Shown here: one piece after another, positions 21,421 to 51,062 of the stretch
Position numbering within the stretch: position 1 is the first letter of the stretch
Layout of the letters: the number at the start of each line of letters is the position of its first letter
NCBI RefSeq assembly: GCF_964204645.1
Contig: NC_134025.1
Coordinates: 18,327,101 to 18,391,100, forward strand
From: Tubulanus polymorphus
Taxonomy: Eukaryota; Animalia; Nemertea
Length of the DNA: 64,000 bases
Direction of reading: 5' to 3'
The notes under the pieces: model-generated
Databases searched by the model: none
The model's input: the letters and a program-made list of their open reading frames with translations, nothing else
Told to the model about the DNA's origin: nothing
Translations under genes and position numbers: made by a program

Positions 21421-21437
21421 ATAATTTTGTTATAAAA

Positions 21438-27170: not shown

Positions 27171-27294
27171 AGCTGTAAATTTAATTGTTATTTGATTTAA
27201 TCATTTAAAAGTTTAATATTTTAAAAATGATTTTAAAATATTTAAATAAAAACAAGCAAATGTTTATTAATTTTCTAATTTCTTTCTTAAATAA

Positions 27295-27513: not shown

Positions 27514-27550
27514 ATAGTGAATTAATCTATTAAAATCTTTTTCTAATTAA

Positions 27551-28524: not shown

Positions 28525-28561
28525 TTAATAAGAAAAAGATTTTAATAGATTAATTCACTAT

Positions 28562-28780: not shown

Positions 28781-28899
28781 TTATTTAAGAAAGAAATTAG
28801 AAAATTAATAAACATTTGCTTGTTTTTATTTAAATATTTTAAAATCATTTTTAAAATATTAAACTTTTAAATGATTAAATCAAATAACAATTAAATTTA

Positions 28900-30068: not shown

Positions 30069-30142
30069 CTATTAGATATTTAGATCATTTAACTAAATTC
30101 AATAATTATTTGACTATTTAATTTATTTTCAATGTAGAATTG

Positions 30143-30799
30143 TTACTCTTTACACCAGTTTTTATGTTTAATTGTTTGGTAATGCTTTGATTTATGTGAT
30201 TTTGAATATTTACCTCCGCAATAACAATGAATTTTTTCATTAGGATTAAATCTTTTGAATTCATTTTCTAAATCACATTGAATTGCGATATGTTTAAAAG
30301 ATTTATTATTTTCTAAATCACACTGAATTGCAATATCTTTAAAAGAATTATTGTTTTCTAAATCACATTGAATTTCAATATTTGATGTATTTTCATTATA
30401 AATAATTTGTTTATTATCAAAATTACAATAATATAATTGTCGTTTTTCAATTCTTAAGTCTATCCTATCATTACCTTTTGAAAGTATTATATCACTTTCT
30501 CTTTCATTAAAAGGAAATTTAAGAATATTTATTATGTTTTCATCTAAATTACCTTTATAATTTAAAACTGTATTAAATATTTTAGGATTTTTGGCGCCAT
30601 TATCTAAAGTATCTATTAGTTCAGTAATTAAATATGTTTCATTTAATAATATTTGATTAATTATAGTAATATTATCAATTTTATATTGTCTTCCATATAC
30701 TAAATTTGTTGCTGAAATATAATTTCTAATGTTAAACTGTGAAAATGATTTATTGGTTTCATTGATTTCGATTTTGAAGTTGGGTTCTTCTTTCTTCAT
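30143..30799 (-). CDS. Hypothetical protein with 3x IQCDLEN repeat and C-terminal CxCG..H..T.KH zinc finger
   Basis: Open right-arm copy; the finger resembles those at the N-terminus of P1/P2 PolB. Confidence 0.7.
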   Translation of the reverse strand: MKKEEPNFKIEINETNKSFSQFNIRNYISATNLVYGRQYKIDNITIINQILLNETYLITELIDTLDNGAKNPKIFNTVLNYKGNLDENIINILKFPFNERESDIILSKGNDRIDLRIEKRQLYYCNFDNKQIIYNENTSNIEIQCDLENNNSFKDIAIQCDLENNKSFKHIAIQCDLENEFKRFNPNEKIHCYCGGKYSKSHKSKHYQTIKHKNWCKE

Positions 30800-33560
30800 T
30801 TTTATAACAAAATTATTACTCACACTTTACTCACACTTTCAATATTGAAAATCTCAATTATTTTACTCACACGTTACTCACACTTTTAATATTGAAAATC
30901 TCAATTATTTTACTCACACTTTACTCACACTTTTAATATTGAACAATTTTATCATTTTACTCACACTTTACTCACACTTTTAATATTGAAAATCTAAATT
31001 ATTTTACTCACACTTTACTCACACTTTTAATATTGAACAATTTTATCATTTTATTAGCGCTTTTATATTAAAAAGTGTGTTTATTTTTGGAAAAAAGCAA
31101 AAAAAAAAAAAATTTAATTTTTCTAAACTTATTTTTATTTCTTAATTCGCTGATACTTTCTCTCCATATTTAGTTTTTATCTTTTCTAATTTCAATATCT
31201 TATGTTCAATTTCTTTTGTAACATCAACTAACTTTTTTATTTCAAATTGTTTTTTTCAAATGGTTTAATTCTGTTATTTATTGTTGCTAAGAATGCTTTT
31301 CTATCTCCCATTTATTTGGAAAAAAAATTACTTGTGGTGATGAGTGGTCGACCTTCGACCTCTGATCTGAAAGCCTACTTTCCCAATTACTACTGAGATT
31401 ACGTCTCGTTTCGCCGATGTACATCATATTACAGTCTTTACACGGTATCTTATAGACCCCGGACTCAATTAGCTCACTGTTGGGTTTATTTTTGGTTAAA
31501 ACATTAGTGAGTTTGTTATTATACTGAAAGACTAATCTAGTGTCGATGGTGCTTAATGTGGATTTAAAGCGTCCAACGTAGGTAAATACGGGATTATAAT
31601 ATTTTTTTGAGCTCTGCGCTTTGTGGTCAGGTCGTTACGTCCAAAGTGAGAAATTCGGGCTTTGAAATAAGCTTTGTTCAAAATTTTGTCTGGATAGGCT
31701 AGTTTCTTGAGAGCAGTTCTTATATGTTTGATTTCTTTATCTAAAAACGTTTCATCACAAATAAGTAGAGCTCGAAGAAATAATCCTTGGGCTATTCCAA
31801 TTTTGATGTTCAAAGGAGTAAATGAGAAAAAATGAAGATAAGCTTCAGCGTTAGTCGGTTTTCGATATACAGAGAATTTCAAATTTGTTTTAAAATAATG
31901 ATGCAATTATTTTCTTCCCACTCACAAGTGAAATTCAAAGTAGGATATAAAGAGTTTAAATAATGTAAGAATCCATTCACATTAAAATCGGGGGAAACTA
32001 AACAAAGAATATTGATACACCGGTCACAATCCTCTCTTTAATCGTTATCTATAAAATACTTGAGTAAGGTCCTGGCGAGAGAACGTGTCCGTGCACAAAT
32101 CCGAATGAATGAATTGAAATACCGGATGATAATATTGAAGATAATATATTTTATTTACCTTGAACAAAGAATGATTTTCCTAATCCCTATTGTATATGAA
32201 TCCCTATCGTTCCGAAGCTTCTCCTGTCCTGCTGTCGACACTCGTCTTACTAAGGTACAGATTCTCTCCTCTCTCTCGATAGCGGCCCCCTTTCGTAGAA
32301 AGAACCGGCATTCTCAGAATTCCGATTCTCCCACGCAGGGTCTTCCGCTTTTTGGCAAGGAGCAGCTACCCAACTGTCATGACCGTTTTTAGTTACGGAA
32401 AATTTAGCCCTACTGATTTGCTGATCTAAGGGTTTTTTAGAAACTGATTTGCCGATATAAACTTTTTCTTCCAACCCTCCTGTCATGACGCGTTGTCATT
32501 TACTCACTCCTTGCTAGTCGTTGTTGAGAGAGCAGCTATTGTCTGTGAATTACCAACGAGCGCATACAGACAACAGAAACTTCAGACAGCTAGTTTTAAC
32601 ATTTAACACAAATTAATTTTTCTAAAACATTAGCGATTATTAACAATTTGTTCTTAAACAACATCTAGATTACTCAAATTAAATATCTTTTCAAAACTTT
32701 GTTTTCTTTTCTAATTACAGTACAAATTCATTGTTTCTTTTTTAATTATTATAATTAACTACGATTCGGAATACATTGTGATTGATTATCAATTCTTAAA
32801 TTATTTGAAATACTTATACTAATTATTTCATCTACAATTTAACTAATTCTATTTTAATACAGGATAAGCAAAACAACCACATCTTCCTAAACTTCCGGTT
32901 TTTCCTTTTACGGAAAGTAGCCGGGAATATCATCAAGTATCAGCGTGATCCCTTCACGAGCCTCATTATAAATACACTCCATTGTTCCGACCCAACCAAA
33001 TATGGTTCCAACTATTTAAAAGTTTTATATAAAGATTTTCTGAATGTTTGCCAGATCTCACAGCAGAAAAACCGAGAAAGAATTGTTGTTTATAGACTGA
33101 TTTATGGTTTGCGTTGGTAGATGAAAGCATCAAACAAGAACTTTCGTAATTCTTACTACTAGTACGTTCTTGTCTGACGGCTTTAACGTAACCCCCACGC
33201 ATACGGAAACAACATTAAGAACATTTCTAAATACTACGAAACATTTTCAAATACTACGAAAATCTAGCTGTGGATCAATATCATCCACGTAACGTCGCCA
33301 AATTTTGGGTCTACTTGTTCGACTGTTGAAATGATTTGACAGTTGAAATGATAAATTGTTTGACAGTTGAGAATTTCACTTTCGACATGTTCCAAAAATA
33401 AACCGGCAAGAACATTCGACAACTAACTCGCCTATTTATACTACTTAACAGTGGGGAATCCCCAGCTGCGTGTTGAGACGTGTAAATTATAAGGCTTGTG
33501 ATTGGTTAGTGTAGTTTTCTAGAACCATCTAGAATCAACAGTAATGGGGAATACTCAACG

Positions 33561-33928: not shown

Positions 33929-34965
33929 TGTCTGAAAAGAGGTTAACAAGACGACGTGGAGGCCATTATGCGGCCGCAGGTAAACTAATTAAAGAGGCAG
34001 ATGCGATTATTGTGACTCAAACCGTTCAAAGACCGGATTTATTGCGTTTAGAAAGAATTTTTCGAGTTTAAATGATCAATTGGATTATATCGCAGTATTG
34101 GACTTGGAGATTTTGGACGCTATCGACGATGATGCGGCATATGAAACCAGTTTTTCAACGTATTCAGACGAACTACTTAAACTTCGAGACAAGCACCTTA
34201 CTTACGGTCAATATGTTTCTGAAAAAACTGCGAAACCGGTGCCACCTACTCCTGGTGATAAATCAAAAGTGCGATTACCTCACTTGTCTTTACCCAAATT
34301 CAGTGGGAAAATTCTAGAATGGGAACAGTTCTGGGACGGTTTTAAGGCTGCGGTGCATGATATTTCGGAAACTCTTATACCTGGGGTGCAGAAATTTCAG
34401 CATTTGCGTAATCAATTGGAAGGTGATGCTAAGAACTGTATTGCGGGTTTATCGTTAACCGCCGCTAATTACACTGCGGCGATAGTACTGTTAAAAGATC
34501 GTTATGGTCAAATTCATAAGATCGTATCTGCTCATCTGAAAGAATTAGTGGACTTACAAGCTCCTGCTGATTCACCATCGAGTTTCCGGACATTTCGTGA
34601 CTCTATAGAGTCTCATATAAGGTCGTTAGACGCGCTTGGTAAAAGTTCTGATTCTTATGGCGATATGTTATCATCTGTAATTCTGCATAAGTTACCGAGA
34701 TCCGAGAGTTAGAAGAAATTTAATTCGTTCTCGCGGAAATAAAGAGTTATCGTTACAGCAATTGCGTGATTTTATGTCGGAGGAACTGGAAATTATGAAT
34801 GCGGGATTAGATTACACTGTAGATGACTCTAGTGAACTTACGGATATTTCTAGTTTACCGGTTTTCGACAATAATCAACAAAACAGCAGTAATAAGTCTA
34901 CGAAGAATCTCAAATGTGGATTATGCGATAAACAACATAAAGTTACCGACTGTAATCTAAACGGG
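33929..34965 (+). pseudogene. gag: BEL gag, 5' part
   Basis: VRLPHLSLPKFSG..WEQFWDGF..QKFQHL..LEGDA..NY..A..LLKDRYG; CGLC..H..C knuckle just before the P2 insertion. Confidence 0.9.
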
Positions 34966-35081
34966 AGTAATTAGAATATGTGGGTTTCATACCAGAGGAC
35001 GAGAGGACGAGACACCACTCATCACCACAAGTAATTTTTTTTTTCCTACTCATCACCACAATTAATTTTTTTTCCTAATAA

Positions 35082-38000
35082 ATGGGGGAGAATGAACACC
35101 AACTAGAAAACAATAATGTCAATAAAAATCAATATTATTGTCAATATTGTAAAAAATACATCGATACATCTAATAAAACACGACATGAAAAAACTGCAAA
35201 TCATATAAAAGATGTAATAGATTTTGAAACTCCAGAAAATTCCAATGAAAGAAAAGAACGATTAGAAAATATGAATGTGAATGAAATAAAATGTAAAGTT
35301 TGTGATGAATTTATAACAAAAAGGAATTATAATAGACATCTCGAAACAGAAAAACACCATCAAAATTTGAGAAATAATGTTTTAGGAATAGATTATTTTG
35401 ATGATAAACCTCAACAAGTAAAAGAATCAACTTCAAAAACTAAATCCATTTCAAATAAACCTTACATGGAAAATGTTAGAAATTATATTGATTCACTAGA
35501 AATAAAAGATACAATTGAAATCTTAGAAACATTACATAGTAAAATTGGTCCTGCAGCTATTATATTTAGATTTTTTAAAGGTACAACAATAGAAGATTAT
35601 AGTAAATTTAATGAAATAATAGAAAAAATACTAGATTTGATAACAGATGTTGAATATCCAAAAATTAGTATCTCTGGGAAAGTAAGTTTTATAAAGTCAG
35701 AAGAAAAAATGAATTATAATATTCAAACACACTCTGAAGAAATAATTTCAAAAACACAAATAAAAGAGAAGTTAGAAAAAATATTAAATGAATTTAAACG
35801 TCATATTGAAGAAAGATATTTTGAGGGTTCTGGCTTAACATTGAATGAAATTATATATTTAGATTTAAATGTTTATAATACAAAAAGGAATAAAACATCA
35901 AAAAGTAATAAAATGTTTAAAAATGATTCAAACTTTACAACAGAAAAGGATATGAAAGCATCAAGTTATATCAAATTACCGTTTACAACAAAAGCAGTAA
36001 TAAATATTCAAAATGAAGATAATAAATGTTTTCTATGGTCAATTATTAGTTGTTTACACCAAACAGAAGATATGACACATAGTTTTAGAATAACAAATTA
36101 CCGGAAATATGAAACATTATATAAAATTGATCAATATCCAGTAACTATAAAAATGATTCCTAAAATAGAAAAAGTTAATAATTTAAAAATAAATGTATTC
36201 GAATTAATGCAATTACCAAAGACAAAAGGTGAAAATATTAAAGATTATACATTGGAAGCTTTATATTTAACAGAATATTATGATGATGAAAATGCTATAG
36301 ATTTGTTATATTATAAAAAAGATGAAAATGAACATTATATGTGGTTAAAACAAATTGATTTATTCTTTAGAACAGAAAGTGATCATCATCGTAAAATTTA
36401 TCTATGTAGAAAATGTTTATCTAAATTTATGACTGAGAATACATTATTAAAACATAAAGAATTATGTGATAATAAAGATTTTTGTAAATTAATAATGCCA
36501 ACAGAAAAAGATTATAAATTGAAATTTACTAATCATAAATTTAAAAATATTGTTCCATTTGTAATTTATGGGGATTTTGAATCGTTGAATAAAGAATTAA
36601 CTGATCAAGATAGAAAAGAAATATATAACAAAAAGCAATTATTAAAATCAATGGATAAAGGAAATGAATTAAATGAAGACACAATACAAGACCCACCAAT
36701 TATAAATACAATTAAAAAAGTTCATCAAAGAGCTGCTGCTTATGGAATTTACATAAAATCAAATTATCCCGAATTATATGAAAGTCAATATATTTCTTTT
36801 AGAGGTGAAAATGTAGTTAATGATTTTTGTGATAAAATTATTGAATTAGAAAGTGATTTTGCAAAATTATTAAACAAAAATAAAAGAATAGTTTTGACAA
36901 AAGAAGATGAAATTGATTTTAATTATGCAACTCATTGTTGTTATTGTGAAAAACGTTTTTATTCATTTGATAAAAGAGTTAGAGATCATAATCATTTAAA
37001 TTCAAAATATCGTGGAGCTGCTCATGAAGATTGCAATTTACAAGCTAAAAAAGTAAATTTTGTACCAATATTATTTCATAATTTATCAGGATATGATACC
37101 CATCTATTTATAAAACAATTATCAGGAAAATTGGGTGCAATTAATCAAGAAATAGAAGAATATAATGCTATGAATGAAGCAAATGTAAGAAAATATGATT
37201 TTAAACTATTAGCTAAAACATCTGAAAATTATATTTCATTTCAATTTGGTTGCATTAGATTTTTAGATTCTTATAGATTTCTAGCAAGTTCATTAGATAA
37301 TTTATCAAAAAGTTTAGTTGATAATGATTTTGTTATAACTCGATATTATTATCCAAATGAACAAGATTTTAAATTATTGAGATATAAAGGCGCAATTCCT
37401 TATTCATTTTATAAAACACATGATGATTTTAATGTAACAGAATTATTAAAAGATCAATTTTATGATAAATTAAAAGAGGAGTATGTGAAAGACGAAGTTT
37501 TTGATAGAACATTAAATATTTGGAACCATTTTAAGATGAAAAATCATGGCGAATTAGTTGATTTATATTTAAAATCAGATGTTATGATATTAGCTGACAT
37601 ATTTGAAAAATTTAGAGAAGTTAATTTGAATCATTTTAATGTTGATCCTTGTTATTGCTACTCTAGTCCTGGTTTAACCTGGCAATGTGGTTTAAAATAT
37701 ACAAATGTAGAATTAGATTTATTAAAAGAACCAGATATGGTTTTATTATTTGAAAAATTAATTAGAGGTGGAATTAGTGGTGTTATGGGAGATAGGTATT
37801 TTAAAGCAAATGATGAATATAAATTATTATATATTGACGCCAATAATTTATATGGTTGGGCAATGATGCAACCTCAACCATATAAAAATTTTATATTAAC
37901 AGAAGTTGAAAATGGTGATAAAACTGATTGGGAAAGCGCAATTATTAGTTTAAAAGATGAAGCACCAATTGGTTATTTCTTTGTAGTTGATTTAGAATAT

Positions 38001-40151
38001 CCTGAAAATATAAAGTTTAAAACAAGAAACTTACCTTATTGCCCAAAACATTTAACTGTAGATGATAGTTATTTAAGTGAATACCAGAAGAAAATAAAAC
38101 CGAAAGATCATGTTTTTACAGAAAAATTAATACTTACTCAAAATAATAAATACAATTATATTGTTCATTATAGAATGTTAAAATTTTATCTAAAACAAGG
38201 AATGAAATTAAAGAAAGTACATAGATATATTGAATTTAATCAATCGAAGTGGTTAGAAAAATATATAGATTTCAATACTCAACAGAGAACCATATCAAAA
38301 ACAGATTTTGAAAAAGATTTTTTCAAATTGATGAACAATAGTTTTTATGGAAAAACTTGTGAGAATATTCGTAATAGAAACGACATTGAATTAGTAAATA
38401 ATTCTGAAAGATTAAGACATTTACAATCAAGTCCTAGACATTTAGGAAATAAAAGATTTGAAGATTATTTAACAGCAGTAAAATTAAAAAGAACGTCAAT
38501 GAAATTTAATAAACCCATTTTCATTGGTTCAACAGTTTTAGAAATATCAAAATTATTAATGTATGATTTTTATTATAATGTATTACAACCCTATTTTGGG
38601 GAAAAGAATATAGAAATTCTGTACTTCGATTCTATAACGGCTGACACCCCAATATTATTAAAATGTAATAATAAAATATTGGTAAGAAGAATTTCAGAAA
38701 TAATTCCAAAACAAAATGAATGTTATATTTCATATGGTGAAAAAGAATTAATACAAATAAATGGATTAATGGATGTTTGGACGAGAAATGGATGGAAAAA
38801 ATTAAAGAATATTATTAGACATAAAACAAATAAGAAAATCTATAGAGTTAGAACTAAATTAGGATTTATAGATTGCACCGGAGATCATAGTTTGATTAAA
38901 CAAAATGGTGATAAAATAAAACCAATTGATATAAAAATTGGAGATGAATTATTACACAACAGATTTTACCCAAGAATGAATCATATGTCATTTGATGAAA
39001 TGATTAATAATATTTGTAATATAGAACCCGAAACATTGGAAGAAAAAGAATATTTTATCAAAGGATTTTTCATGGGTGATGGTTCAGCAGGTGTGTATAA
39101 TTATGTTAGTGGAACTAAATATTGTTGGTATTTATGCAATCAAGACTTAAAATTATTAGAAAGAATTAAGAAATTCTGTGAAGAAGTTTATCGAAATAAA
39201 ACATTCAAAATCATAGATGTTATGAAATCATCAGCAGTTTATAGAATACTTGTAAATAATCCTAAAGATTTTGCTATAGAATATAATGATGAATTCTATA
39301 TTCATGCAATAGTGAAAAGTAATACTTCGACAAAAGAAAAGATAGTTCCAGATTATGTATTAAATGCAAAAAATAATTTAAGAAAATGGTTCTTCATTGG
39401 ATTCTATGCAGCAGATGGTTCAAAAAGTTTCCAAAACCGCAAAACAATATCCTTTGCTCAAAAAGGAAAAGTTGCTATATCAGGATTAGATATTTTATGT
39501 AATTCATTAGGCTTCAATATGAATATTGGATTGATTAAATCTAAACCAAATTGCTTTAATTTAAGCCATGTAGAAAATGAGTTAACTGAAGAAGTTAAAG
39601 ATTTATTTGAAATATATAACCCAACAGATTATGTTTATGATTTATCAACTGAAGATGGTACATTTAACTGTGGATTTCCATTAATAGCCAAAAATACTGA
39701 CGCCTACATACTAAAAATCAAGACAAATGACATCACAAAAGACTTAAAAACATTAAAACATCATTTTGATTTTAGCAATTATCCTAAAGATCATGAACTA
39801 TTTAGCAATGATAATAAAAAGATTCCTGGTAAATTTAAAGATGAATTAGGAGGTGATGAAATGATTGAATTTGTTGGGATAAGAAGTAAAATGTATAGTT
39901 ACAGAACAAAAGATCATGAAGCTAAAAAGTTAAAAGGAATAACAAAACATGTGGTTGATAAACATATAGAATTTCATGATTATATAAAGTGTTTATATAA
40001 ATCAATTGTAATGAAACACAAGATGAATTGTTTAAGATCAGAAGATCATGAGATGTACATTAATGAAGTTGAAAAAACTAGTTTAAATCCATTTGATGAT
40101 AAAAGGCATATTTCAGATGATGGTATAAAAACATTACCTTATGGTTATTAA
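35082..40151 (+). CDS. polB: Protein-primed family B DNA polymerase with N-terminal zinc fingers and an intein
   Basis: 1689-aa open frame; Exo YGDFES, FHNLSGYD, YLKSDV; Pol YIDANNLYGWAM, KLMNNSFYGK, YFD|TD, KMY, FDDKR. Confidence 0.97.
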   Translation: MGENEHQLENNNVNKNQYYCQYCKKYIDTSNKTRHEKTANHIKDVIDFETPENSNERKERLENMNVNEIKCKVCDEFITKRNYNRHLETEKHHQNLRNNVLGIDYFDDKPQQVKESTSKTKSISNKPYMENVRNYIDSLEIKDTIEILETLHSKIGPAAIIFRFFKGTTIEDYSKFNEIIEKILDLITDVEYPKISISGKVSFIKSEEKMNYNIQTHSEEIISKTQIKEKLEKILNEFKRHIEERYFEGSGLTLNEIIYLDLNVYNTKRNKTSKSNKMFKNDSNFTTEKDMKASSYIKLPFTTKAVINIQNEDNKCFLWSIISCLHQTEDMTHSFRITNYRKYETLYKIDQYPVTIKMIPKIEKVNNLKINVFELMQLPKTKGENIKDYTLEALYLTEYYDDENAIDLLYYKKDENEHYMWLKQIDLFFRTESDHHRKIYLCRKCLSKFMTENTLLKHKELCDNKDFCKLIMPTEKDYKLKFTNHKFKNIVPFVIYGDFESLNKELTDQDRKEIYNKKQLLKSMDKGNELNEDTIQDPPIINTIKKVHQRAAAYGIYIKSNYPELYESQYISFRGENVVNDFCDKIIELESDFAKLLNKNKRIVLTKEDEIDFNYATHCCYCEKRFYSFDKRVRDHNHLNSKYRGAAHEDCNLQAKKVNFVPILFHNLSGYDTHLFIKQLSGKLGAINQEIEEYNAMNEANVRKYDFKLLAKTSENYISFQFGCIRFLDSYRFLASSLDNLSKSLVDNDFVITRYYYPNEQDFKLLRYKGAIPYSFYKTHDDFNVTELLKDQFYDKLKEEYVKDEVFDRTLNIWNHFKMKNHGELVDLYLKSDVMILADIFEKFREVNLNHFNVDPCYCYSSPGLTWQCGLKYTNVELDLLKEPDMVLLFEKLIRGGISGVMGDRYFKANDEYKLLYIDANNLYGWAMMQPQPYKNFILTEVENGDKTDWESAIISLKDEAPIGYFFVVDLEYPENIKFKTRNLPYCPKHLTVDDSYLSEYQKKIKPKDHVFTEKLILTQNNKYNYIVHYRMLKFYLKQGMKLKKVHRYIEFNQSKWLEKYIDFNTQQRTISKTDFEKDFFKLMNNSFYGKTCENIRNRNDIELVNNSERLRHLQSSPRHLGNKRFEDYLTAVKLKRTSMKFNKPIFIGSTVLEISKLLMYDFYYNVLQPYFGEKNIEILYFDSITADTPILLKCNNKILVRRISEIIPKQNECYISYGEKELIQINGLMDVWTRNGWKKLKNIIRHKTNKKIYRVRTKLGFIDCTGDHSLIKQNGDKIKPIDIKIGDELLHNRFYPRMNHMSFDEMINNICNIEPETLEEKEYFIKGFFMGDGSAGVYNYVSGTKYCWYLCNQDLKLLERIKKFCEEVYRNKTFKIIDVMKSSAVYRILVNNPKDFAIEYNDEFYIHAIVKSNTSTKEKIVPDYVLNAKNNLRKWFFIGFYAADGSKSFQNRKTISFAQKGKVAISGLDILCNSLGFNMNIGLIKSKPNCFNLSHVENELTEEVKDLFEIYNPTDYVYDLSTEDGTFNCGFPLIAKNTDAYILKIKTNDITKDLKTLKHHFDFSNYPKDHELFSNDNKKIPGKFKDELGGDEMIEFVGIRSKMYSYRTKDHEAKKLKGITKHVVDKHIEFHDYIKCLYKSIVMKHKMNCLRSEDHEMYINEVEKTSLNPFDDKRHISDDGIKTLPYGY
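38631..39695 (+). mobile_element. Intein (355 aa) with LAGLIDADG homing endonuclease
   Basis: Splits motif C as YFD|SITADTPI..VYDLSTEDGTFNCGFPLIAKN|TD; block B DCTGDHSL; LAGLIDADG helices FIKGFFMGDGS and FFIGFYAADGS; absent from P1 PolB. Confidence 0.95.
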
Positions 40152-40166
40152 AATGGATCTATATCA

Positions 40167-41429
40167 TCAAACTTCTTCATTTTCATTTAATTGTTCAGGT
40201 TCTTCTTCCATTCCATTTTTCTCATTTAAATAAAGTTCTATCTTGTTCCACATTTCATCTCGCTCTCTTTGTTTCTTTTTGTTTGTTAATTCATCAAATG
40301 GAATTATGATATCTAGGTTTAAATAATTTACAATCTTATTTAAAAAGAATTCATAATTTATTGAATCTGTTATTCTATTTTCCAAATGATACATTAATAT
40401 TTGTTTAAATATTTTTTTTATATTTTCCATATCTTCTTCTGTTAATTTAGGTTTTTCATAATAATCGTTAAATAATAAATATAAATACATTTTCTTTTGT
40501 TTTGTGTTAAATGTTGGTGGAATAATTGTTTTTATAATATCTTTTTTAGTTATTTCACCATTTTTATTTTCTATTATTTTCATTTTTTCAAGCCATTGCA
40601 TATATTCTGGTGTATGATCTTCTATAGAAAATATTTTAAAAATTTCATCTAGATAATTTAATTTTGGTTCTATGAGAAAATCTCTAGTTTTTTCTTCACC
40701 CCATAAATTCTTTTGCCATCCACATTCAACACAAAATAACACAGTACCTTCTTGCCTTAAGGTCGCATAACTACATTGTGGGCATTTTTGTTTATAATTT
40801 CTTGGTAATAGATCTTCATTAAGCTCTTGGTATTTTCTTACGTTTTCTTTATGTTTTATTGTTCTATTATGTAGATTTGAATTACTTGTTGTAATAATCA
40901 ATTTACAATATTTACAATAATATGTTTTTCTTGTTAATTCATTATATTGTTTTTCTAACTTTCCAACTGTTTCTTTATTATCTGGTAACGTTTTCTCATA
41001 TTTTATTTTTTCTAATAAATTATTTTTTCTTTCATTGAATTCAGTTTCAAATTTATTAGAAATTTTATCTATATGTGCTTTACGAAATTGATGATTCCCC
41101 CAATCTTCTATATTTTCAGGGCTATATTTTACTTGACAAGGCTCACAGAAATGATCTTTTATATTATCCTTATCATAGAATAAGAAAGGTCTTTTCCAAA
41201 TAACTTCAGGTTCAACTTCAGCAGAATTACTATCAACATTAGCCGTTGCGCCATTAATTCTACACTTCTCTGAATGTTTTTTAACATAATTTCTTGAGAA
41301 TAATTTATTACATTTTGGACAGTTTATTTTAGGGGGTTTATAATTTTCATCATGTTTTTTCATATGTCGAGCCTTATTACTTTTTCTTAGAAGTTCACCA
41401 CAAATTTCGCATGCTATCTTCTCATCCAT
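40167..41429 (-). CDS. Zinc-finger protein with C-terminal poxvirus VLTF-3 (A2L)-like domain
   Basis: CPQC..FCVECG..KLNYLDEIF..LTEEDMENIKKIFKQILMYHLEN..SINYEFFLNKI..RDEMWNKI follows my recollection of vaccinia A2L; several N-terminal C2H2-like fingers. Confidence 0.75.
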   Translation of the reverse strand: MDEKIACEICGELLRKSNKARHMKKHDENYKPPKINCPKCNKLFSRNYVKKHSEKCRINGATANVDSNSAEVEPEVIWKRPFLFYDKDNIKDHFCEPCQVKYSPENIEDWGNHQFRKAHIDKISNKFETEFNERKNNLLEKIKYEKTLPDNKETVGKLEKQYNELTRKTYYCKYCKLIITTSNSNLHNRTIKHKENVRKYQELNEDLLPRNYKQKCPQCSYATLRQEGTVLFCVECGWQKNLWGEEKTRDFLIEPKLNYLDEIFKIFSIEDHTPEYMQWLEKMKIIENKNGEITKKDIIKTIIPPTFNTKQKKMYLYLLFNDYYEKPKLTEEDMENIKKIFKQILMYHLENRITDSINYEFFLNKIVNYLNLDIIIPFDELTNKKKQRERDEMWNKIELYLNEKNGMEEEPEQLNENEEV

Positions 41430-41497
41430 TTATTAAGGAAAAATTTTATTAAAATTAATTTTTAGTGATGAGCGGTAATTTTTTTATGTTATAAATA

Positions 41498-42257
41498 ATG
41501 GTAGAATTAAAAGAATACAGAATATTTATTGATTCTAGAAAACTTACAAATTATAAATCTCATAATTTACTAGTACAATTAGATAGAGATTTCAAGAATT
41601 GTGTAGATTTAAAATTAGTTAATATAAGTTTATGTAATTCTTTTTATAATATATCGGATAAAACTATTGAACATAATACTTTTTTAATTCATATTAGAAG
41701 TATAAATAAATGGTTTAATCTATTTCTAAGACCAGGATTATATAATTTAGAAACATTATCTCAAGAAATTAATCGGAGAGCACGATTAAAACTTAAAAGT
41801 GAAGATAAATTTTCAATTAGATTTATAAAAAGCGATAGTTCTGATAAAATTAAAATAAAGTTAGATGATGAAAACAAACATGCATTTATGGTAAAAAAAA
41901 CCTATAGCTAAACTGTTAGGAATTGTACCAGATACTGTTACAGGAAACGTAGAAGGTATTTCAAATATAATACCTTTTACACACTTTTATATTTATTGCA
42001 ATTTAATCGAGCCTACAAAAACATTTGAAGCAACTAAAGATATAACTTGTAATTCTAGTATATTAAATATTTTACCATTGAAGAATGTTAAAGAATTTGG
42101 AACGCAAATAAATTATAATTTAACAGAATGTGATTTCAAACCATGCATTCCTCGTTTTAATAATTTTAGATTAGAAATTAGAAATCATAATGGATACTTA
42201 ATTGATTTAAATAACTTTCCTGTAATTTATGAATTAGTTATAAGATGTAAAGAGTAA
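41498..42257 (+). pseudogene. Minor capsid (penton) protein, frameshift at A-run ~41893-41900
   Basis: IFIDSR..L..NSFYNI..PGLYN..LLGI..YIYCNLI..ILNILP..LEIRNHNG.LIDL pattern of Polinton/PLV pentons. Confidence 0.75.
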
Positions 42258-42273
42258 TTTTTTCACTATATAA

Positions 42274-42615
42274 ATGAATATAACTGTCGGACCGAGTATA
42301 TGTTTTGGATTTGATTTTAAACATGGTAAAGAAATGAGAATTAAACTAAATGACGTAATTACTGATATAAAAAGTAAATCATTTAACAATGCATCAATGA
42401 TTGATAAAGAAAAGTATAATATAGAAAAAGTAATTGATTTAATTAAATCACCTTTAGAATATTATGAATTAAATGAAGATGGAATTATTGATGATATTAA
42501 AAACATATTAACCAAAATATATGATAATCATAAAACTAGTAATAAAATAAATGTTGAATTAATCATAAATAAGTTAACTAAATATTTTGATGATAGTAAT
42601 TTTTTTGATAAATAA
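42274..42615 (+). CDS. Hypothetical protein (113 aa)
   Basis: TAAATG start; homolog relic in P1. Confidence 0.7.
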   Translation: MNITVGPSICFGFDFKHGKEMRIKLNDVITDIKSKSFNNASMIDKEKYNIEKVIDLIKSPLEYYELNEDGIIDDIKNILTKIYDNHKTSNKINVELIINKLTKYFDDSNFFDK

Positions 42616-42837
42616 ATGAGTGATAATAAGTGGATAATAACTGGATTATATAATGGCGCATTACTATCAGTTGGAACTGTTGGTTATTCAATGGTATTAA
42701 AAAAAGTATTCAAAATGGGAAGTGTTAATGTTGATAGATTTGATATAAATGATATTTTAAAGTTAACATTAGCAGTTACTTTATCTAATTTAACAATTGA
42801 TTATTTGGAAAAACAAAAATATATTCCTCCCATATAA
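42616..42837 (+). CDS. Small hydrophobic protein (73 aa)
   Basis: TAAATG start; two hydrophobic helices; conserved in P1. Confidence 0.75.
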   Translation: MSDNKWIITGLYNGALLSVGTVGYSMVLKKVFKMGSVNVDRFDINDILKLTLAVTLSNLTIDYLEKQKYIPPI

Positions 42838-42865
42838 GAAATATGTAATTTTTTTTGCTAAATAA

Positions 42866-43288
42866 ATGGCTTCTGCAATTATAACTATTATAGGATCGGC
42901 AATCGTTAACGCTTTAGCATTTACTGGTGGTGGTTATTTATTTAAACATATTGATAAAAATAGTTCATTAGGAGAACAAAGAAGACATAACTTAGCGTTA
43001 GAGAAATACAATAAAGCTGCAGAAGAATATAGAGAAAAGAGGCAAAACTATGTGGATTACATCAATAAAGAATTATATGATCAGAAGATTTCACATAGAG
43101 ATTTTCAATCAGTTGATGATGCAATGAGTTTATATAACGCAGTAACAAATAAAGAAAAATTACATCTATACAAACCTAAATTATCAGATTATCATACCCC
43201 GAGTAAAGAACAACAGAAATATGAAATAATATGGATTTTAGGTGGAACAGTTATTGTTATATTTGTTGCTTATAAGTTTACTAATTAG
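42866..43288 (+). CDS. Hypothetical membrane protein (140 aa)
   Basis: Hydrophobic N- and C-termini around a coiled coil; TAAATG start. Confidence 0.75.
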   Translation: MASAIITIIGSAIVNALAFTGGGYLFKHIDKNSSLGEQRRHNLALEKYNKAAEEYREKRQNYVDYINKELYDQKISHRDFQSVDDAMSLYNAVTNKEKLHLYKPKLSDYHTPSKEQQKYEIIWILGGTVIVIFVAYKFTN

Positions 43289-43307
43289 TAATTTTTATTC
43301 TAAATAA

Positions 43308-43742
43308 ATGGAAGATAAAGTTGATAATATTGATATTATTCCTCATGATATAAATAAAACTAAATTAAAAACATATTTAGAAAAACAAATATTAGAATTT
43401 GAAAGTGACTTAAAGATAAAAAAGAAAAAATATTTAAAAAGTAAAATTATATATTATTTGATTATAAGTGGTTCGGTTACAATTAGTTCTGTAATAACAT
43501 TTCTAGCAATATTCAGTCCATTAACACCTTTAGCTATATCAATTGGTGTATTAGGATTAAGTTCAAGTGTTTTAACCGGTATAAGTTCAAAATTAAATAT
43601 AAAAAGTAATAAAGAAAAAATTAAAACTAATATAAAAGAAATTAATAAATTAAAGAACACACTAGATTATATAATGAGTTTAAATGGTCATATAACAGTT
43701 GAAGAACAAGATAAATTATTAAAAGAATTAATAAATTATTAA
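43308..43742 (+). CDS. Two-TM coiled-coil protein (144 aa)
   Basis: Central hydrophobic hairpin; TAAATG start. Confidence 0.7.
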   Translation: MEDKVDNIDIIPHDINKTKLKTYLEKQILEFESDLKIKKKKYLKSKIIYYLIISGSVTISSVITFLAIFSPLTPLAISIGVLGLSSSVLTGISSKLNIKSNKEKIKTNIKEINKLKNTLDYIMSLNGHITVEEQDKLLKELINY

Positions 43743-43758
43743 TTTTTTAATTATATAA

Positions 43759-45147
43759 ATGGTAGATAGTTTTCCAAAAGCTTTCCAATATAATAAATCA
43801 ATTAAATATAATATTCCAGCAATAGATTTTAATAAAGATATTACGTATAGAAATGAAGTTTTAAATTCATTAATTGATTTATATATTTATGTTACTGAAA
43901 CTAATAATTTTAATGTAAAGATGGAAAATATATTTCATATATATTTAATTAATTTTAAAAAATTGAAAGATGAAAAACAATGGTTATTAAAATCTAATAT
44001 GAAGTATTGGCAGAATCAATTAAATTTTGCTGTTTATTGTGCAACAACAGGTTGTGGAATTAGTTGGAATGATCATTTAAATAATTCTAAATATAAACTA
44101 ATTCAAAGTTTATTTAGATTTCATACATACTTTCAAATCAGAATAATATTAAATGAATTAGAGTGCGCTTTACCAGGATCTAGATATTTCAAAGAATTAG
44201 ATAATGATATTAATTTATCTAAGTTTTATAAAATTTGCAATGAATTTAATATAGATATAAATAATTCTGATTTTAGAACAAAAATTGGAACAATAAGATC
44301 ACTTCCATGCCCTAGAAAGATTGCAGAATATTGTGCACTTCCCATACCATCTAATAGTTTTTATAATATCTATAATAATAAATTAGGTTATGGTAAAATA
44401 GAAACAAAAGATTTAGAAACATTAAATTTCAATAAATTACCAAAATTTTATGATAATTTAAAACAAGAAAACAATAATGGTTGGGTATATTTCATTTTAG
44501 AGAATAGTGAAGGTTTTACTAAATCAGGTATAGAAAGAATAAATCAATCTATTAGAACTTATTTGATTTGTATTCTAGGATCACTAGTTGAAACAAGATC
44601 ACCGATAATTGGAAATTTGAATACATCATTCGATACACAGAAACAGTTTAAAGTTTTATTTGAAGATTCAATTCATAATGATAAAAATAGATCGATTCCA
44701 GAAAACATTATAAGATATCAAAATTATTTAGATAAATCTCATGTAAGACTTAATTATTGTATAGGCCCTAATCTATTAATTATTTCTAATGATTTAGTAT
44801 TGAAGATGGGAAATATAATTGGTTATAATAATCTAATTAAAACTGCAACAATAAATAATTCATTTGGATTAAATGATATAAATAAAAAGATTATTACTGC
44901 TCCAAAATTAATGGAAGGTGAAAAAAATAAAAAACATATTCAATCAACAGAAACTAAAACTAAAAATATCAAATTAAATAATGATTCCAAAATAAAAGAT
45001 TACAATACATCAGAAAATATAAAAACTGATAAAATTCAACATGATATAATTAAAACTGATAATGATAATAAATCCCATGAAAATACTAAATTAGCTATAA
45101 CTTGTATAGGAATTGTAATCGGAGGAATATTATATTTTAAATTTTAA
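43759..45147 (+). CDS. Hypothetical Polinton protein with C-terminal TM anchor (462 aa)
   Basis: Long open frame; YWQNQLNFAVYCATTGCGIS; TAAATG start. Confidence 0.8.
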   Translation: MVDSFPKAFQYNKSIKYNIPAIDFNKDITYRNEVLNSLIDLYIYVTETNNFNVKMENIFHIYLINFKKLKDEKQWLLKSNMKYWQNQLNFAVYCATTGCGISWNDHLNNSKYKLIQSLFRFHTYFQIRIILNELECALPGSRYFKELDNDINLSKFYKICNEFNIDINNSDFRTKIGTIRSLPCPRKIAEYCALPIPSNSFYNIYNNKLGYGKIETKDLETLNFNKLPKFYDNLKQENNNGWVYFILENSEGFTKSGIERINQSIRTYLICILGSLVETRSPIIGNLNTSFDTQKQFKVLFEDSIHNDKNRSIPENIIRYQNYLDKSHVRLNYCIGPNLLIISNDLVLKMGNIIGYNNLIKTATINNSFGLNDINKKIITAPKLMEGEKNKKHIQSTETKTKNIKLNNDSKIKDYNTSENIKTDKIQHDIIKTDNDNKSHENTKLAITCIGIVIGGILYFKF

Positions 45148-45163
45148 TTTTTTTATTATGTAA

Positions 45164-46609
45164 ATGGATGTAGAAGGTGGAGAAAATATTCCATTGGATG
45201 ACATGGGAAATGATAATGAAGGATATATTGATGATGAACCACAAACCGATTTTAATAAAACTAATATTGATAATGATGATGAATCAGCATATAATTCTAA
45301 TTTAACTACACCTCAATATATTGACAAAGCACGTTCAAAGATAAGTATTGAAAATGAAGTACCAGAAATAACAGAAAAAGAATACAATTATAATGAAATT
45401 ATTCATGAATTTAAACCAATATTAAAAAAATCTGGTTTCAATATAACAAATAAAGGTATGGATTATTTAGTAAAAGATTTAAAATATTTAAATGGTGATT
45501 ATTATTGGAAATTGAAAGGCGACTATTATTTTAAGATTTCAGATCTTAAAACTAGCGATAAAATAATAATACAATCAACCGCTAATTTATTAGAACAATC
45601 TAGAATTAAGAAAATCATTGATGATGTTATAACTGATGTTACACAAGAAGAAAGAATTGTTAATTTAAAAGAATTTAAACAAAGAAATGCTAAATTTTTT
45701 GATATAATTAATGCAAATTTAGAAACAGAAACAACTTCTGAACAGAATATAACTTCCAAAACTAGTAAACCTAATTCAAGCGAAGTTCAAACTGAAAAAC
45801 TTTTACCGAAGGGATTACTTGATGCAACAAATCAACAATTAGAAGATTTAGATATATTTTCTGATAAAGCAATAAGAGAAATTGTTAGTATAAGACTTGC
45901 ATCTGAAAAAATTGCATATTATAAAAGTATAAGAGATCAAAAAATTAGAACTTTAGAAAAAGAATTAACTGATAAAAATAAAGAAATAGAACAATTAAAG
46001 TCTGATTTAGATCATCAAGTAATTGATGAAATAGAATATAAACAAAAAGAATTACGTTTAGAAAAAGAAATAGATGATTTAAAATATAACAAAGAATTAC
46101 AAAAAGAAGAAAGAGATACATTGTTAAAATCATATGATTATAATATTAATAGATTAAAAGTTATTTTTAAAGATTTGTTGATTAAACCAAATTCTGAAAT
46201 ATCACTAAAAGACAGAATAAGATTATTATTTAAATTAGAAGGAATAACAATTCTTTCAATTCTAACAGCTGTAACTATGTTATTTACAACAATTGGTTTA
46301 GCAATATCAAATGCTTTAAAATCTACTCCTACTCCCACTCCCAATAAACCAGATAAACCTCCAGGAAATAATTCTATACAAGATAAAGTTAAAGATGGTT
46401 TAAAGAAATTAGCAAAATATTTATGGGAACTATCTAAAAAATCTGCTGCAGCTTTACCAGGAGTTATTGCTTCAATTGTTGGTTTTATATTGAAATCTGC
46501 AGGAAACATTATTAACTTTGCTGCTGAACATATTATTTTATTTTTAATTACAGTTGTAAGTGCTATTATTTTTGGGTTAGTGAATATGATATCAAAAAAT
46601 ATCAAGTAA
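45164..46609 (+). CDS. Coiled-coil protein with C-terminal hydrophobic helices (481 aa)
   Basis: Long open frame; acidic N-terminus, coiled coil, TM segments; TAAATG start. Confidence 0.8.
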   Translation: MDVEGGENIPLDDMGNDNEGYIDDEPQTDFNKTNIDNDDESAYNSNLTTPQYIDKARSKISIENEVPEITEKEYNYNEIIHEFKPILKKSGFNITNKGMDYLVKDLKYLNGDYYWKLKGDYYFKISDLKTSDKIIIQSTANLLEQSRIKKIIDDVITDVTQEERIVNLKEFKQRNAKFFDIINANLETETTSEQNITSKTSKPNSSEVQTEKLLPKGLLDATNQQLEDLDIFSDKAIREIVSIRLASEKIAYYKSIRDQKIRTLEKELTDKNKEIEQLKSDLDHQVIDEIEYKQKELRLEKEIDDLKYNKELQKEERDTLLKSYDYNINRLKVIFKDLLIKPNSEISLKDRIRLLFKLEGITILSILTAVTMLFTTIGLAISNALKSTPTPTPNKPDKPPGNNSIQDKVKDGLKKLAKYLWELSKKSAAALPGVIASIVGFILKSAGNIINFAAEHIILFLITVVSAIIFGLVNMISKNIK

Positions 46610-46680
46610 ACCATGATATCAAAAAATATCAAGTAAACCATGATATCAAAAAATAAATAATTAATTTTTTTGTTAAATAA

Positions 46681-47930
46681 ATGAGTGGGAGTTATATAAG
46701 TCCTTCCACGAATCATAGAATATCTAATGCTATTAAAGCAGAAAGATCACATCATATAATTACTCATAATCCTTCAAATATTAATCCCGATGAAACTTTA
46801 TACGTTAGAATCCCTCGATTAACACAAAATACTTTTTATGTTCCAAATAGTATTTATTTATCGGCCGATATAAAAGTAATCGGTAATAATAATAATTATG
46901 TTGTCGATAATGTTGGAAGATATTTGATTAAAAAGTTAACAATAAAGATTGGTCCAGAAACAGTTTTCTCATTAGATGATTATAATTTATTTATGCATTA
47001 TAAAGATTTATGGTTAACTAAAGAAAATAGAAATAATATGATATTTCAAGGAATCCAATCAGAAAACCATAATAAATTAAGATCTGAAGCCAATAACGCA
47101 GTAGTAAATAATGGCGTAGATAATTTGATTAAAAAGATTTATGGAAGTAAATATAAAATTCCATTAGACTTTGAATTGATAAATAATAATGCACCTTTAT
47201 ATAAATACGCAATTCAAGAAGATATTATATTTGAGATAACATTTGCTCCTGTAAATGAAATTGTATTATCTAGCGTTGTTAAAGATATGGGTTATAAATT
47301 ATCGAATATATGTTTAGAATATAACACAGTAACTAATGAAAATATTGCTAGCGCACAATTCAAACTCAATACAATCAAGGATTTTCATTATTATATGATT
47401 ATATTGATAAATTTAAAACTGTAACTATTAATGCAAATGATGAAATAATTAATGAGAATATTAACTTCCCAAGAAGATCTATTAAAGGTATATTAATATT
47501 TTTTACTATTGCAACATATTCTAATGGTGCAATAAATGTTGATAATTATTATAATCCTGAAATAACAAAAGTAGAAATAACTATCGAAGGAATAGCGAAT
47601 AAAATATTTTGCCAAGGAATGAGAATGATTGATCAATGGCCAGAAATTAAAAAACATTTTATGAATGAAAAAGTAAAATCATTTGAAAATTGTAATATTA
47701 ATCAAATTGATTATTATACCGGTAATAAATATGCATTATGGTTAGATTTTAGAACAACTAAAGATAATTCATTACATGGTTCTGGGAAAAAACTACAGAA
47801 CACTAAAGATGGAATACAATTATTTATGAAAAAGAATAAAGGAATCAAAAATTTTAAAATGCACATTTATATTATATCTGACGCGCAATTAAATATTGTA
47901 AATTCACAATTAGATAGTATTCAATATTAG
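46681..47930 (+). pseudogene. Major capsid protein (putative double jelly roll), frameshift near 47355
   Basis: ~415 aa beta-rich when joined; HNPSNINPDETLYVRIP, YKIPLDF, YKLSNICLEY, FPRRSIKGIL, YALWLDFR; located next to integrase and ATPase. Confidence 0.7.
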
Positions 47931-47960: not shown

Positions 47961-48663
47961 ATGAGTGGTAAAAAAACTCCTAATACTAAAGAACAATATT
48001 TAAGAAATTTATATTACAACCCTGAGAGTTCGGTTGCTTATTCTTCTACTAAAAATATATGGCGTAAAGTAAAACAAGATAAATTAGATAAGATAATCCC
48101 ACAAAATTTAGTTAAATATAAAGATATAAATGAATTTATGTTAGAACAACCAACATATACAACACATAAAAAAATTGTTAGAAAATATAAAACTCGTAAA
48201 ACTATGGTAAGTTATGTAGATCAACAGTGGCAAGGAGATTTAATTGATATGAAAAATCTTAAAAAAGATAATAATGATTAATTTATATGGAGCATTTCTT
48301 GTAGATGATTTTGGTGAACCTAAATTTAAAGTTGGTCAAAATGTTAGAATTTCTAAGTATAAAAAGATATTTGACAAAGGATACGATCGAAATTTTACTA
48401 GAGAAATATATAAAATAAAAAAGGTAATAACAACAAAACCATATGTCTATAAATTAGAAGATTTAGATGGTGAAGAAGTTGATGGTTACTTTTACGAAGA
48501 AGAATTAAGTTTAACTACTGAAAATCTAGAACAAGAATATAAAATTGAAAAAGTATTAAAAACAAAAACTATTAAAAGAAAAAAATATTCTTTAGTAAAA
48601 TGGGTTGGATGGCCAGATAAATTCAATGAATGGATATTATCAAGTAAAATTAAAAATATATAA
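47961..48663 (+). pseudogene. Integrase with the catalytic core deleted
   Basis: LYYNP..YTTHK..QWQGDLIDM joins directly to NLYGAF..KFKVGQNVRISK..chromodomain LVKWVGWPDKFNEW; the IDIFSRY/DEGKEF/ERFN segment seen in P1 is absent. Confidence 0.88.
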
Positions 48664-49272
48664 ATGAATAAAGAATTATTTATATTTGAGCCTCATAATA
48701 TGTTAATTTCTGGTGTAACAAATTGTGGAAAAACTTATTTTATATTAAATTTATTAGAAACTGTTTATGAAAACTATTTTGATAATATAGTATTATTTTG
48801 TCCAACATATGAATTTAATCAAACTTATGATAGAAACATTACTAGAAATAATAAATTTATTATATTAGATCCTAAAACAGTAAAAGAAAATTTAGATAAT
48901 TGTATAAAAATAGCAATTGATATTTATAAAGGATCAAATACATTATTTATCATAGATGATTGTGCTAATCTACATGATTCAAAAGTTAGAGAAAGTGAGT
49001 TATGTTATTTAGCTTTCTCTGGCAGACATTTTGGGATAACAACTTGGGTTTTAAATCAAAAATATAATTCAATTGTTAAAGACTTTAGAGAAAACATTAG
49101 ATTTCTAGTTTTATTCTACAATAAAGATAGAAAATCGATGAAAAATGCACTTGAGGAAAATGATATTATTCCACATGATTTACATAATGAATATATGGAT
49201 GAGTTGAAAAATATTAAAAGATCAAAATTACTATTTAGATTACAACACCCATTTAAATATGAATTTATTTAA
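48664..49272 (+). CDS. DNA packaging ATPase (A32/FtsK-like)
   Basis: GVTNCGKT, FIIDD, SGRH, LNQ; intact 202 aa. Confidence 0.92.
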   Translation: MNKELFIFEPHNMLISGVTNCGKTYFILNLLETVYENYFDNIVLFCPTYEFNQTYDRNITRNNKFIILDPKTVKENLDNCIKIAIDIYKGSNTLFIIDDCANLHDSKVRESELCYLAFSGRHFGITTWVLNQKYNSIVKDFRENIRFLVLFYNKDRKSMKNALEENDIIPHDLHNEYMDELKNIKRSKLLFRLQHPFKYEFI

Positions 49273-50162: not shown

Positions 50163-50466
50163 ATGGTCTCGACAATTAGGAATTAAATCACAAGAATATA
50201 AAAAAGCTGTAAAAGAAAAAATAAGTAATAAAAATGTTAATAAAAATGGTGAAAATATTGTTATTTCTACTCCTTCTGATAGTAGAATATTTGATAAATA
50301 TTTATATTTTACATTTGGATTTGTAATTGTATTCATTTTGATTGGGTATAATTGGTATAAGAAATCAAATAAAATTCATGATATTAGTAGTAATTCTGAA
50401 CCAACTGCTATCAAAAATGAAAGTACTTCTGAAATTCCAAAATTGATAATAAAAAAAATGGATTAA
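50095..50466 (+). CDS. Small single-TM protein
   Basis: TAAATG start; homolog of 16579-16920. Confidence 0.7.
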   Translation: MSEVKEVKELTVKKKPRTQKQIEWSRQLGIKSQEYKKAVKEKISNKNVNKNGENIVISTPSDSRIFDKYLYFTFGFVIVFILIGYNWYKKSNKIHDISSNSEPTAIKNESTSEIPKLIIKKMD

Positions 50467-50613
50467 TAGAAATAATGAATATCTCACTACTTTTGTCTAT
50501 CACTGTGTGGGTGCTGTTTATGGCACCATCTATGTGGAGCAATTAAATTGTCCAGATAAGTCATTTCGGATTCTAGATATTCATTATTTCTATTAATTTA
50601 TTTTTTTTTAAAT

Positions 50614-50940
50614 TTAATCAACAATTTCTAAATCATGATGACCGTCTTCATTTTTCCCATGATATATTATTTTAAATCCTACTAAATCTTTCAATTCCTC
50701 CGTACTCAATGAAACCCATTTATCGGGTAAAAACACTTTAAATTCTCGCGATGTACTAACATTACAGTAGCTTAAATTAGCTGATACTTTCTCTCCATAT
50801 TTAGTTTTTATCTTTTCTAATTTCAATATTTTATGTTCAATTTCTTTTGTAACATCAACTAACTTTTTTATTTCAAATTGTTTTTTTGCTGGTTTTATTC
50901 TGTTATTTATTGTTGCTAAGAATGCTTTTCTATCTCCCAT
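50614..50940 (-). CDS. 108-aa terminal protein of unknown function
   Basis: Starts inside the right TIR at TAAATG; KIKTKYGEKV..VFLP; its 5' half is copied in both palindrome arms. Confidence 0.75.
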   Translation of the reverse strand: MGDRKAFLATINNRIKPAKKQFEIKKLVDVTKEIEHKILKLEKIKTKYGEKVSANLSYCNVSTSREFKVFLPDKWVSLSTEELKDLVGFKIIYHGKNEDGHHDLEIVD

Positions 50941-51062
50941 TTATTAGGAAAAAAAATTACTTGTGGTGATGAGTGTTAGGAAAAAAATTACTTGTGGTGA
51001 TGAGTGGTGTCTCGTCCTCTCGTCCTCTGGTATGAAACCCACATATTCTAATTACTAACGGG

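Follow-up and report, generated by a model that had tools for sequence, protein, structure and literature searches.

Analysis of a 64,000-nucleotide stretch of DNA from the nemertean Tubulanus polymorphus (the window) showed that a Polinton located in it, P2, encodes a poxvirus-type VLTF3 domain fused to zinc fingers, and that most P2 genes start with a motif laid out like a vaccinia late promoter. No RNA polymerase or capping enzyme gene was matched by Pfam among the 16 P2 ORFs scanned; the first-pass annotation had likewise stated that this element encodes no multisubunit RNA polymerase. P2 encodes a pox-like late factor and has gene starts that match pox late promoters, and for these reasons it likely borrows pox-like transcription machinery, much as virophages exploit that of giant viruses. 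On balance, we lean towards P2 being a virophage-like parasite whose genes a co-infecting pox-like virus, as helper, would transcribe with its RNA polymerase, P2 supplying a late factor of its own. The coordinates of the features discussed are collected in Table 1.

Table 1. Features of Polinton P2, with positions in the window
Feature	Position	Strand	Remarks
Polinton P2	34966..51056	.	16,091 bp, within a BEL/Pao retrotransposon; delimited by TIRs, target duplication and GC content
Left TIR	34966..35089	+	carries the pPolB promoter-like motif and start codon
pPolB-start motif	35064..35084	+	T-run and TAAATG
Protein-primed DNA polymerase B (pPolB) gene	35082..40151	+	1689 aa, includes an intein
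Zinc-finger/VLTF3 fusion gene	40167..41429	-	420 aa, open frame; syntenic homolog in L055
VLTF3/A2L-like domain (about aa 216-400)	40230..40784	-	C4 zinc ribbon, then two predicted helical bundles
Four N-terminal zinc fingers	40851..41411	-	C2H2, C2HC, two U1/matrin-like; zf-U1 E 9.7e-7
VLTF3 gene promoter-like motif	41427..41445	-	combines an A-rich core, a T5 run and TAAATG, as does the region before the L055 homolog
Likely minor capsid gene	41498..42257	+	split over two frames; weak match to one L141 ORF (E 7e-6)
Seven T-run + TAAATG motifs	42256..46683	+	one per consecutive gene start, from 42274 to the capsid gene at 46681
Major capsid gene	46681..47930	+	split over two frames; Capsid_N E 0.002
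Integrase-chromodomain gene	47961..48663	+	broken; A-rich core and TAAATG at start
A32-like packaging ATPase	48664..49272	+	Pox_A32 E 2.5e-13; A-rich core and TAAATG at start
Right TIR	50933..51056	-	carries the same promoter-like motif; the 108-aa ORF starts in it
108-aa ORF start motif	50938..50958	-	T-run and TAAATG

The TIRs of P2 are 124 nt each and 94% complementary, and are flanked by a perfect 6-bp target duplication, AACGGG, found at 34960-34965 and 51057-51062. The GC content of P2 is 20–26%, versus 34–48% for its flanks. ORFs in the downstream flank matched DUF1758, RVT_1, Peptidase_A17 and DUF5641 in Pfam and correspond to a BEL/Pao retrotransposon, a group typical of animals. All P2 frames of at least 80 aa were listed. 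They include the pPolB, retroviral-type integrase, packaging ATPase and capsid genes of the Polinton/Maverick set which, together with the TIRs and the 6-bp duplication, bear out the Polinton setting given in the first-pass annotation. The frames of pPolB and VLTF3 are open; several others are broken in the present copy, namely the capsid, integrase and likely minor capsid genes, the last of these being labelled by its motif. Both pieces of the major capsid gene matched a single 421-aa ORF of locus L067. An adenovirus-type cysteine protease is usual, though not universal, in Polinton/Maverick elements; it had no Pfam match among the 16 P2 ORFs scanned, several P2 ORFs being without assignment. 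Neither a VLTF2 partner nor A1L/G8R partners were detected among the P2 ORFs.

P2 was found in four of five listed sequencing runs, all with one species label and from one study. One of these runs, which may be the window's own source, contained 15,088 P2-matching contigs, 4,447 of them at ≥99% identity, 4,927 at 95–99%, 4,331 at 90–95% and 1,383 below 90%; this spread of identities points to P2 being a member of a multicopy family. No RNA run was listed among those containing P2; the single run guessed to be RNA yielded two contigs with short partial P2 matches, which are uninformative on expression.

The product of the fusion gene contains every motif that the first-pass annotation had quoted for it, in the order stated there, and the reading of these motifs as a VLTF3/A2L-like domain fused to multiple zinc fingers was confirmed. 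Four fingers precede the domain; their ligands, as read from the sequence, are C7/C10/H22/H26, C37/C40/H52/C56, C95/C98/H113/H119 and C172/C175/H187/H193. The full-length 420-aa protein showed no Pox_VLTF3 match in Pfam at E ≤ 0.1, only zf-U1 being reported. When aa 204-410 were submitted alone, close to the segment (aa ~210-410) for which a Pfam check had been proposed, PF04947 (Pox_VLTF3) was matched with E 4.6e-6 and 26.9 bits, above the cut-off of 25; the domain of the L055 relative had no PF04947 match reported in the same search. In the ESM Atlas, 27 of 30 matches to the P2 domain belonged to Pox_VLTF3 clusters (best score 0.94, with 210 of 256 features in common), as did 26 of 30 matches to the L055 domain (best 0.93). 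In one of the clusters matched by L055 the commonest taxon was Preplasmiviricota, the taxon being known for only five members.

A phmmer search with the VLTF3 domain against 1.84 billion representatives returned only four proteins at E ≤ 0.001. Two are zinc-finger fusions, P0146 (the L055 protein) and P0147, with fingers similar to those of the P2 protein; P0148 has no family assignment; and P0149 (226 aa, Pox_VLTF3 plus A2L zinc ribbon) is the sole one of the four with a Pfam VLTF3 assignment, so that the top sequence match of known family was of the poxvirus A2L type. Over 200 aligned residues P0149 shares 27% identity with the P2 domain; it is 63% identical to the A2L of L160, a 232-kb pox-type contig. 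L160 also encodes two genes of entomopoxvirus type, an NAD-dependent ligase and a fusion of AP endonuclease with polymerase beta. The A2L zinc ribbon profile (A2L_zn_ribbon, PF08792) was present in P0149 and in the L160 A2L, and absent for the P2 domain at E ≤ 10. A profile built from four non-pox homologs and run against 13,892 frames matched the L160 A2L at E 2.4e-12; apart from this protein and the profile's own members, nothing scored below E 0.1. When six sequences were aligned, 13 columns were invariant, the zinc ribbon cysteines (C216/C219/C233/C236) were present in 6/6, and the ribbon and helical core were wholly kept. Word-based protein searches found no homolog of the VLTF3 domain, a phage collection gave no match, and no locus was retrieved from viral_contigs, whether the query was the VLTF3 domain, the ATPase or either of two alignments. 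A PDB sequence search with the VLTF3 protein gave only zinc-finger matches at useful E-values, and one with the pox-type A2L gave none.

A structure model of the domain was built from the six-sequence alignment, which included two pox A2Ls, and reached a pLDDT of 82. The Foldseek comparison suggested in the first-pass annotation, run with this model against BFVD, placed cowpox VLTF3 first (E 1.9e-6, TM 0.59) and entomopoxvirus VLTF3s at ranks 3 and 4. Of its 13 matches at E ≤ 0.001, seven were named VLTF3 or late transcription factors, three were unnamed and three were otherwise named; VLTF3s of Megaviricetes scored within about one order of magnitude of the pox proteins. A poor model made from the single sequence (pLDDT 49.5) also had pox VLTF3s at ranks 1, 2 and 4, with a best E of 8e-3. 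No PDB structure matched the VLTF3 model at E ≤ 0.001; vaccinia Rap94 and human and yeast TFIIB chains were among the top rows, all of them weak (E ≥ 0.13, TM < 0.2). From sequence and modelled structure, membership of the P2 protein in the VLTF3 family is secure. Its affinity to the pox branch, judged by similarity ranks in both, is likely, and AT-driven composition may inflate it. Compared with poxvirus VLTF-3 (vaccinia A2L; PF04947 and PF08792), the P2 domain shares the C4 zinc ribbon, the helical core, a C-terminal Trp and a length of about 200 aa; it differs in being only 24–27% identical, in its four extra fingers and in lacking a PF08792 match.

Fifteen gene starts were defined as the first ATGs of P2 ORFs of at least 70 aa; one antisense ORF and two downstream pieces of broken genes were excluded. 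With this gene list, which was set after the motif had been noticed, TAAATG was present at 13 of the 15 starts versus 35 of the 618 other P2 ATGs (p 5e-14), and TAAATG preceded by AATTTTT within positions -24 to -9 was present at 10 of the 15 versus 0 of 618 (p 1e-18). Across the window the combined pattern had 13 matches (0.42 expected), ten of which are P2 gene starts. Shuffling the 30-nt upstream stretches in 20,000 trials produced a mean of 0.11 and a maximum of three matches, as against the ten observed. The consensus published for vaccinia late promoters has TAAAT plus G over the start codon and, among Ts, a conserved T at the 10th base upstream (PMC11980589); a T-rich core, a spacer of 5–7 bp and TAAAT are likewise described for pox late promoters (PMC5294985). 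As judged from the sequence, the P2 gene starts follow this layout, the T at the corresponding position (-13) being found in 14/15. The genes between 42274 and 46681 are separated by gaps of 0, 28, 19, 16, 16 and 71 nt. The motif is no by-product of the end of an upstream gene, since it also precedes the first genes, borne by the TIRs, and the divergent VLTF3 gene.

Vaccinia intermediate promoters consist of TAAA with an A-rich stretch 15–19 nt upstream, and vaccinia A2L is itself an intermediate gene (PMC11980589). In P2, the A-richest cores (5–6 A in -22 to -15) precede the VLTF3, integrase, ATPase and 123-aa genes, while the remaining genes have T-runs. This division, based on four genes, is suggestive of an intermediate-like (A-rich) and a late-like (T-run) class. 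A CTCATCAC box lies immediately 5′ of the motifs of the pPolB, VLTF3 and 108-aa genes (35018, 35049, 41465, 50966 and 50997); it is tandemly doubled in the TIRs and is a candidate binding site. It was considered as a target of the fingers; being absent from the displayed L055 terminus, it is kept as a lead only.

Locus L055, whose pPolB core is 84% identical to that of P2, carries the VLTF3 fusion at the same, syntenic position (45% identity over 343 aligned residues), and the T-run plus TAAATG motif at 2/2 genes. Loci L056-L058, partial contigs with pPolB cores 72–73% identical, form a sister branch in which a different gene occupies the VLTF3 slot after pPolB; their TAAATG motifs mostly have A-rich cores, a T-run being present at only 1 of 9 TAAATG starts. 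With L059 excluded as a near-duplicate of L057, and with L055-L058 being kin and thus not independent, TAAATG was found at 11 of the 13 ORFs of at least 120 aa in L055-L058, versus 23 of 455 across 93 distant loci, of which the 33 AT-rich ones account for 15 of 153. Two distant PLV-like loci without a VLTF3 match, L143 (5/5) and L158 (5/8), also have TAAATG at most starts; in the sequences compared the motif is clade-restricted but not unique. The T-run class accompanies VLTF3 in only one of the lineages compared. Counted by eye, L160, the closest stretch of pox-type genome, starts 8 of its 21 ORFs with TAAATG and has a T5 run at only one of these eight. A stringent form of the promoter pattern retrieved 54 loci from viral_contigs, none of them related to P2 and none with more than three composite motifs. 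In many distant PLV-like contigs, among them L063, L136, L138 and L152, the ATG is immediately preceded by TATATA-like stretches, similar to the TATATA initiator reported for late genes of African swine fever virus (PMC5294985). Two database labels, that of L158 as part of a bacterial MAG and that of the Polinton-type pPolB P0007 as Sulfurimonas, probably reflect binning contamination.

The first-pass annotation had argued that VLTF3 works with a viral RNA polymerase, and had inferred that P2, lacking one, exploits a helper. This argument is invalid by itself: mriyaviruses (PMC11253617) and ariadnaviruses (10.64898/2026.08.29.747986), presumed to be nuclear, keep VLTF3 without an RNA polymerase, so VLTF3 alone implies no helper. 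The helper hypothesis gains independent support from a feature that the annotation had not seen, the pox-late-type promoter architecture present at most gene starts. In the scheme that we infer, covering the helper, P2 expression, its start sites and the role of the fingers, infection by the helper would wake the silent provirus; how a nuclear P2 copy would meet a cytoplasmic polymerase is the weakest link. Intermediate factors of the helper would then activate VLTF3, integrase, ATPase and the 123-aa ORF, whose cores are A-rich. Next, P2 VLTF3, the helper polymerase and the helper's other late factors would initiate within TAAAT at the T-run genes (pPolB, capsid and membrane-type genes); the resulting mRNAs would be leaderless and carry 5′ poly(A) heads, like the products of the pox late transcription mechanism. 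The zinc fingers would bias the factor towards P2 nucleic acid, drawing polymerase off the helper's late genes. That P2 is a hyperparasite is likewise something we infer.

An autonomous, nuclear P2, in which VLTF3 as a TFIIB-like factor recruits host RNA polymerase II to the T-run/TAAATG motif, is the best placed alternative, though we regard it as unlikely. P2 integrates, as its target duplication indicates, and so reaches the nucleus; polymerase-less viruses retain VLTF2 and VLTF3; an own late factor fits autonomy; and the weak structural matches mentioned above include TFIIB chains besides Rap94. However, no VLTF2 was detected alongside VLTF3 in P2, and the motif abuts the start codon, with T at -3 in 13 of 15 genes, which is unfavourable for start-codon scanning on Pol II mRNAs. 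Intergenic gaps of 0–28 nt are too short to hold a Pol II end and a separate promoter, and TAAATG is still used by relatives whose VLTF3 slot holds a different gene. The mriyaviruses and 'Ariadnavirales' also differ from P2 in that they keep VLTF2, belong to Nucleocytoviricota and lack a DNA polymerase (PMC11253617; 10.64898/2026.08.29.747986).

The use of TAAATG by L143, L158 and the partial contigs L056-L058, in which no VLTF3 was detected, bears on a second alternative, since the factor therefore seems dispensable for such promoters. P2 would here depend on a helper and be read by the helper's factors, and its VLTF3 fusion would act as a decoy, inhibiting helper late genes by binding the polymerase or its late partners; the low identity of the domain to pox-type A2L (27%) and its extra fingers would suit such a role. 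The intact ribbon and helical core, with their 13 invariant columns, argue against it. So does the concentration of T-runs in the VLTF3-bearing lineage (P2 10/15, L055 2/2, L056-L058 1/9), as expected if the factor reads the T-run, although a single lineage makes this argument weak. We consider the decoy improbable.

Least probable is that the motif serves RNA processing or translation (a splice or trans-splice acceptor, a poly(A) signal over the next start, or stop-start coupling) and that VLTF3 is unrelated cargo. In its favour, 8 of the 15 genes have an AATAAA that overlaps the start, one gene's stop codon runs straight into the next gene's start codon at 42615/42616 and 48663/48664, and TAAT with the T-run resembles a branch point and pyrimidine tract. 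Against it, AATAAA is missing at the other seven starts, and the motif is also present where no transcript comes from upstream, before the terminal gene at either end and before the divergent VLTF3 gene. The splice-acceptor reading was rejected because AG is absent between the T-run and ATG in 12/12 T-run genes.

For animal Polintons, an autonomous nuclear life and dependence on a helper are both still debated. The matter has been framed as virophage-first versus nuclear escape (PMC10328495). Mavirus and the Cafeteria EMALEs offer the closest working model for P2: they too are integrated elements with TIRs, target duplication, pPolB and integrase (10.1101/068312; 10.1101/2025.10.09.676808), and their promoters copy the late motif of the helper; mavirus promoters resemble the late motif of CroV, and the provirus stays silent until CroV infects (10.1101/068312). 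In contrast to P2, known from sequence alone, they have a protist host and CroV as helper, and their activation was shown experimentally (10.1101/068312; 10.1101/2025.10.09.676808); P2 has a motif of poxvirus type and encodes a late factor of its own. PLVs also occur in entomopoxvirus occlusion bodies (AHEV_PLV1/2, CBEV_PLV1 and Ca_PLV1) and, like P2 here, are small Preplasmiviricota proposed to be hyperparasites of animal poxviruses (PMC11296320). A cysteine protease is present in them, together with a tyrosine recombinase in some and no detected integrase in the others, while the integrase of P2 is of the rve type and P2 encodes VLTF3 but no detected protease; the terms 'VLTF', 'promoter' and 'TAAAT' are absent from the main text of that report (PMC11296320).

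VLTF3 homologs have been reported before in stony coral polintoviruses (PMC11131425, citing Krupovic and Koonin 2016). VLTF3 also labels MELD viruses in a published figure (PMC8502044), and two PLV clusters have it at a frequency of about 30% (10.64898/2026.06.19.733378). The coral elements resemble P2 in being integrated animal Polintons with pPolB, a retroviral-type integrase and a VLTF3 homolog; there VLTF3 was read as a gene exchanged with giant viruses, and section 8 of the report mentions no pox affinity, zinc-finger fusion or promoters (PMC11131425). Entomopoxvirus-associated PLVs and VLTF3 in polintoviruses are thus already published; for a pox-late-type promoter layout at Polinton gene starts, no report was found in the literature covered, which excludes most subscription papers.

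The vaccinia-late-like gene starts of P2 make helper dependence directly testable with standard reporter and 5′-end assays, and their layout points to a class of helper worth seeking; promoter scanning may be a means of assigning helpers to Polintons. As a more tentative extension, doubtful at present, a clade of animal Polintons would be endogenous virophages of poxviruses or their relatives that copied the helper's intermediate and late promoters one gene at a time, and one lineage would have captured A2, added nucleic-acid-binding fingers and come to redirect the helper's polymerase. If this extension holds, the promoters of such Polintons would be fossil evidence of an unsequenced pox-like host virus and of an inducible antiviral role. 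A captured, retargeted late factor would be a new route by which a parasite takes over a poxvirus-type polymerase.

Inspection of P2 and its surroundings gave some further observations. The pPolB gene contains a LAGLIDADG intein of 355 aa (38631-39695, + strand) inside the YxD-TD catalytic motif. Inteins at the same site were found in 2 of 120 pPolB homologs (P0008, 61%; P0014, 48%), while the pPolB genes of L055 and of a neighbouring degraded element have none. A 34-nt inverted repeat (50451-50484 and 50575-50608) lies at the ends of two convergent genes; these share one sequence after their stop codons, a possible shared 3′-end signal. The window also contains degraded relatives of P2: an element with broken pPolB, integrase and ATPase genes at about 10900-18400 (+ strand), and, at 18700-20200 (- strand), an inverted remnant of the genes at 41498-42837 and 50614-50940 that keeps T-run and TAAATG at 19287. 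No VLTF3 remnant was detected in either. At about 20900-31340, long inverted arms (21221-22220 and 30017-31016, 99% identical) surround some 200 copies of a 24-bp satellite. The outer ends of this structure resemble the P2 TIRs in sequence and include the 5′ portion of the 108-aa ORF; because of these P2-like ends it may be a non-autonomous derivative.
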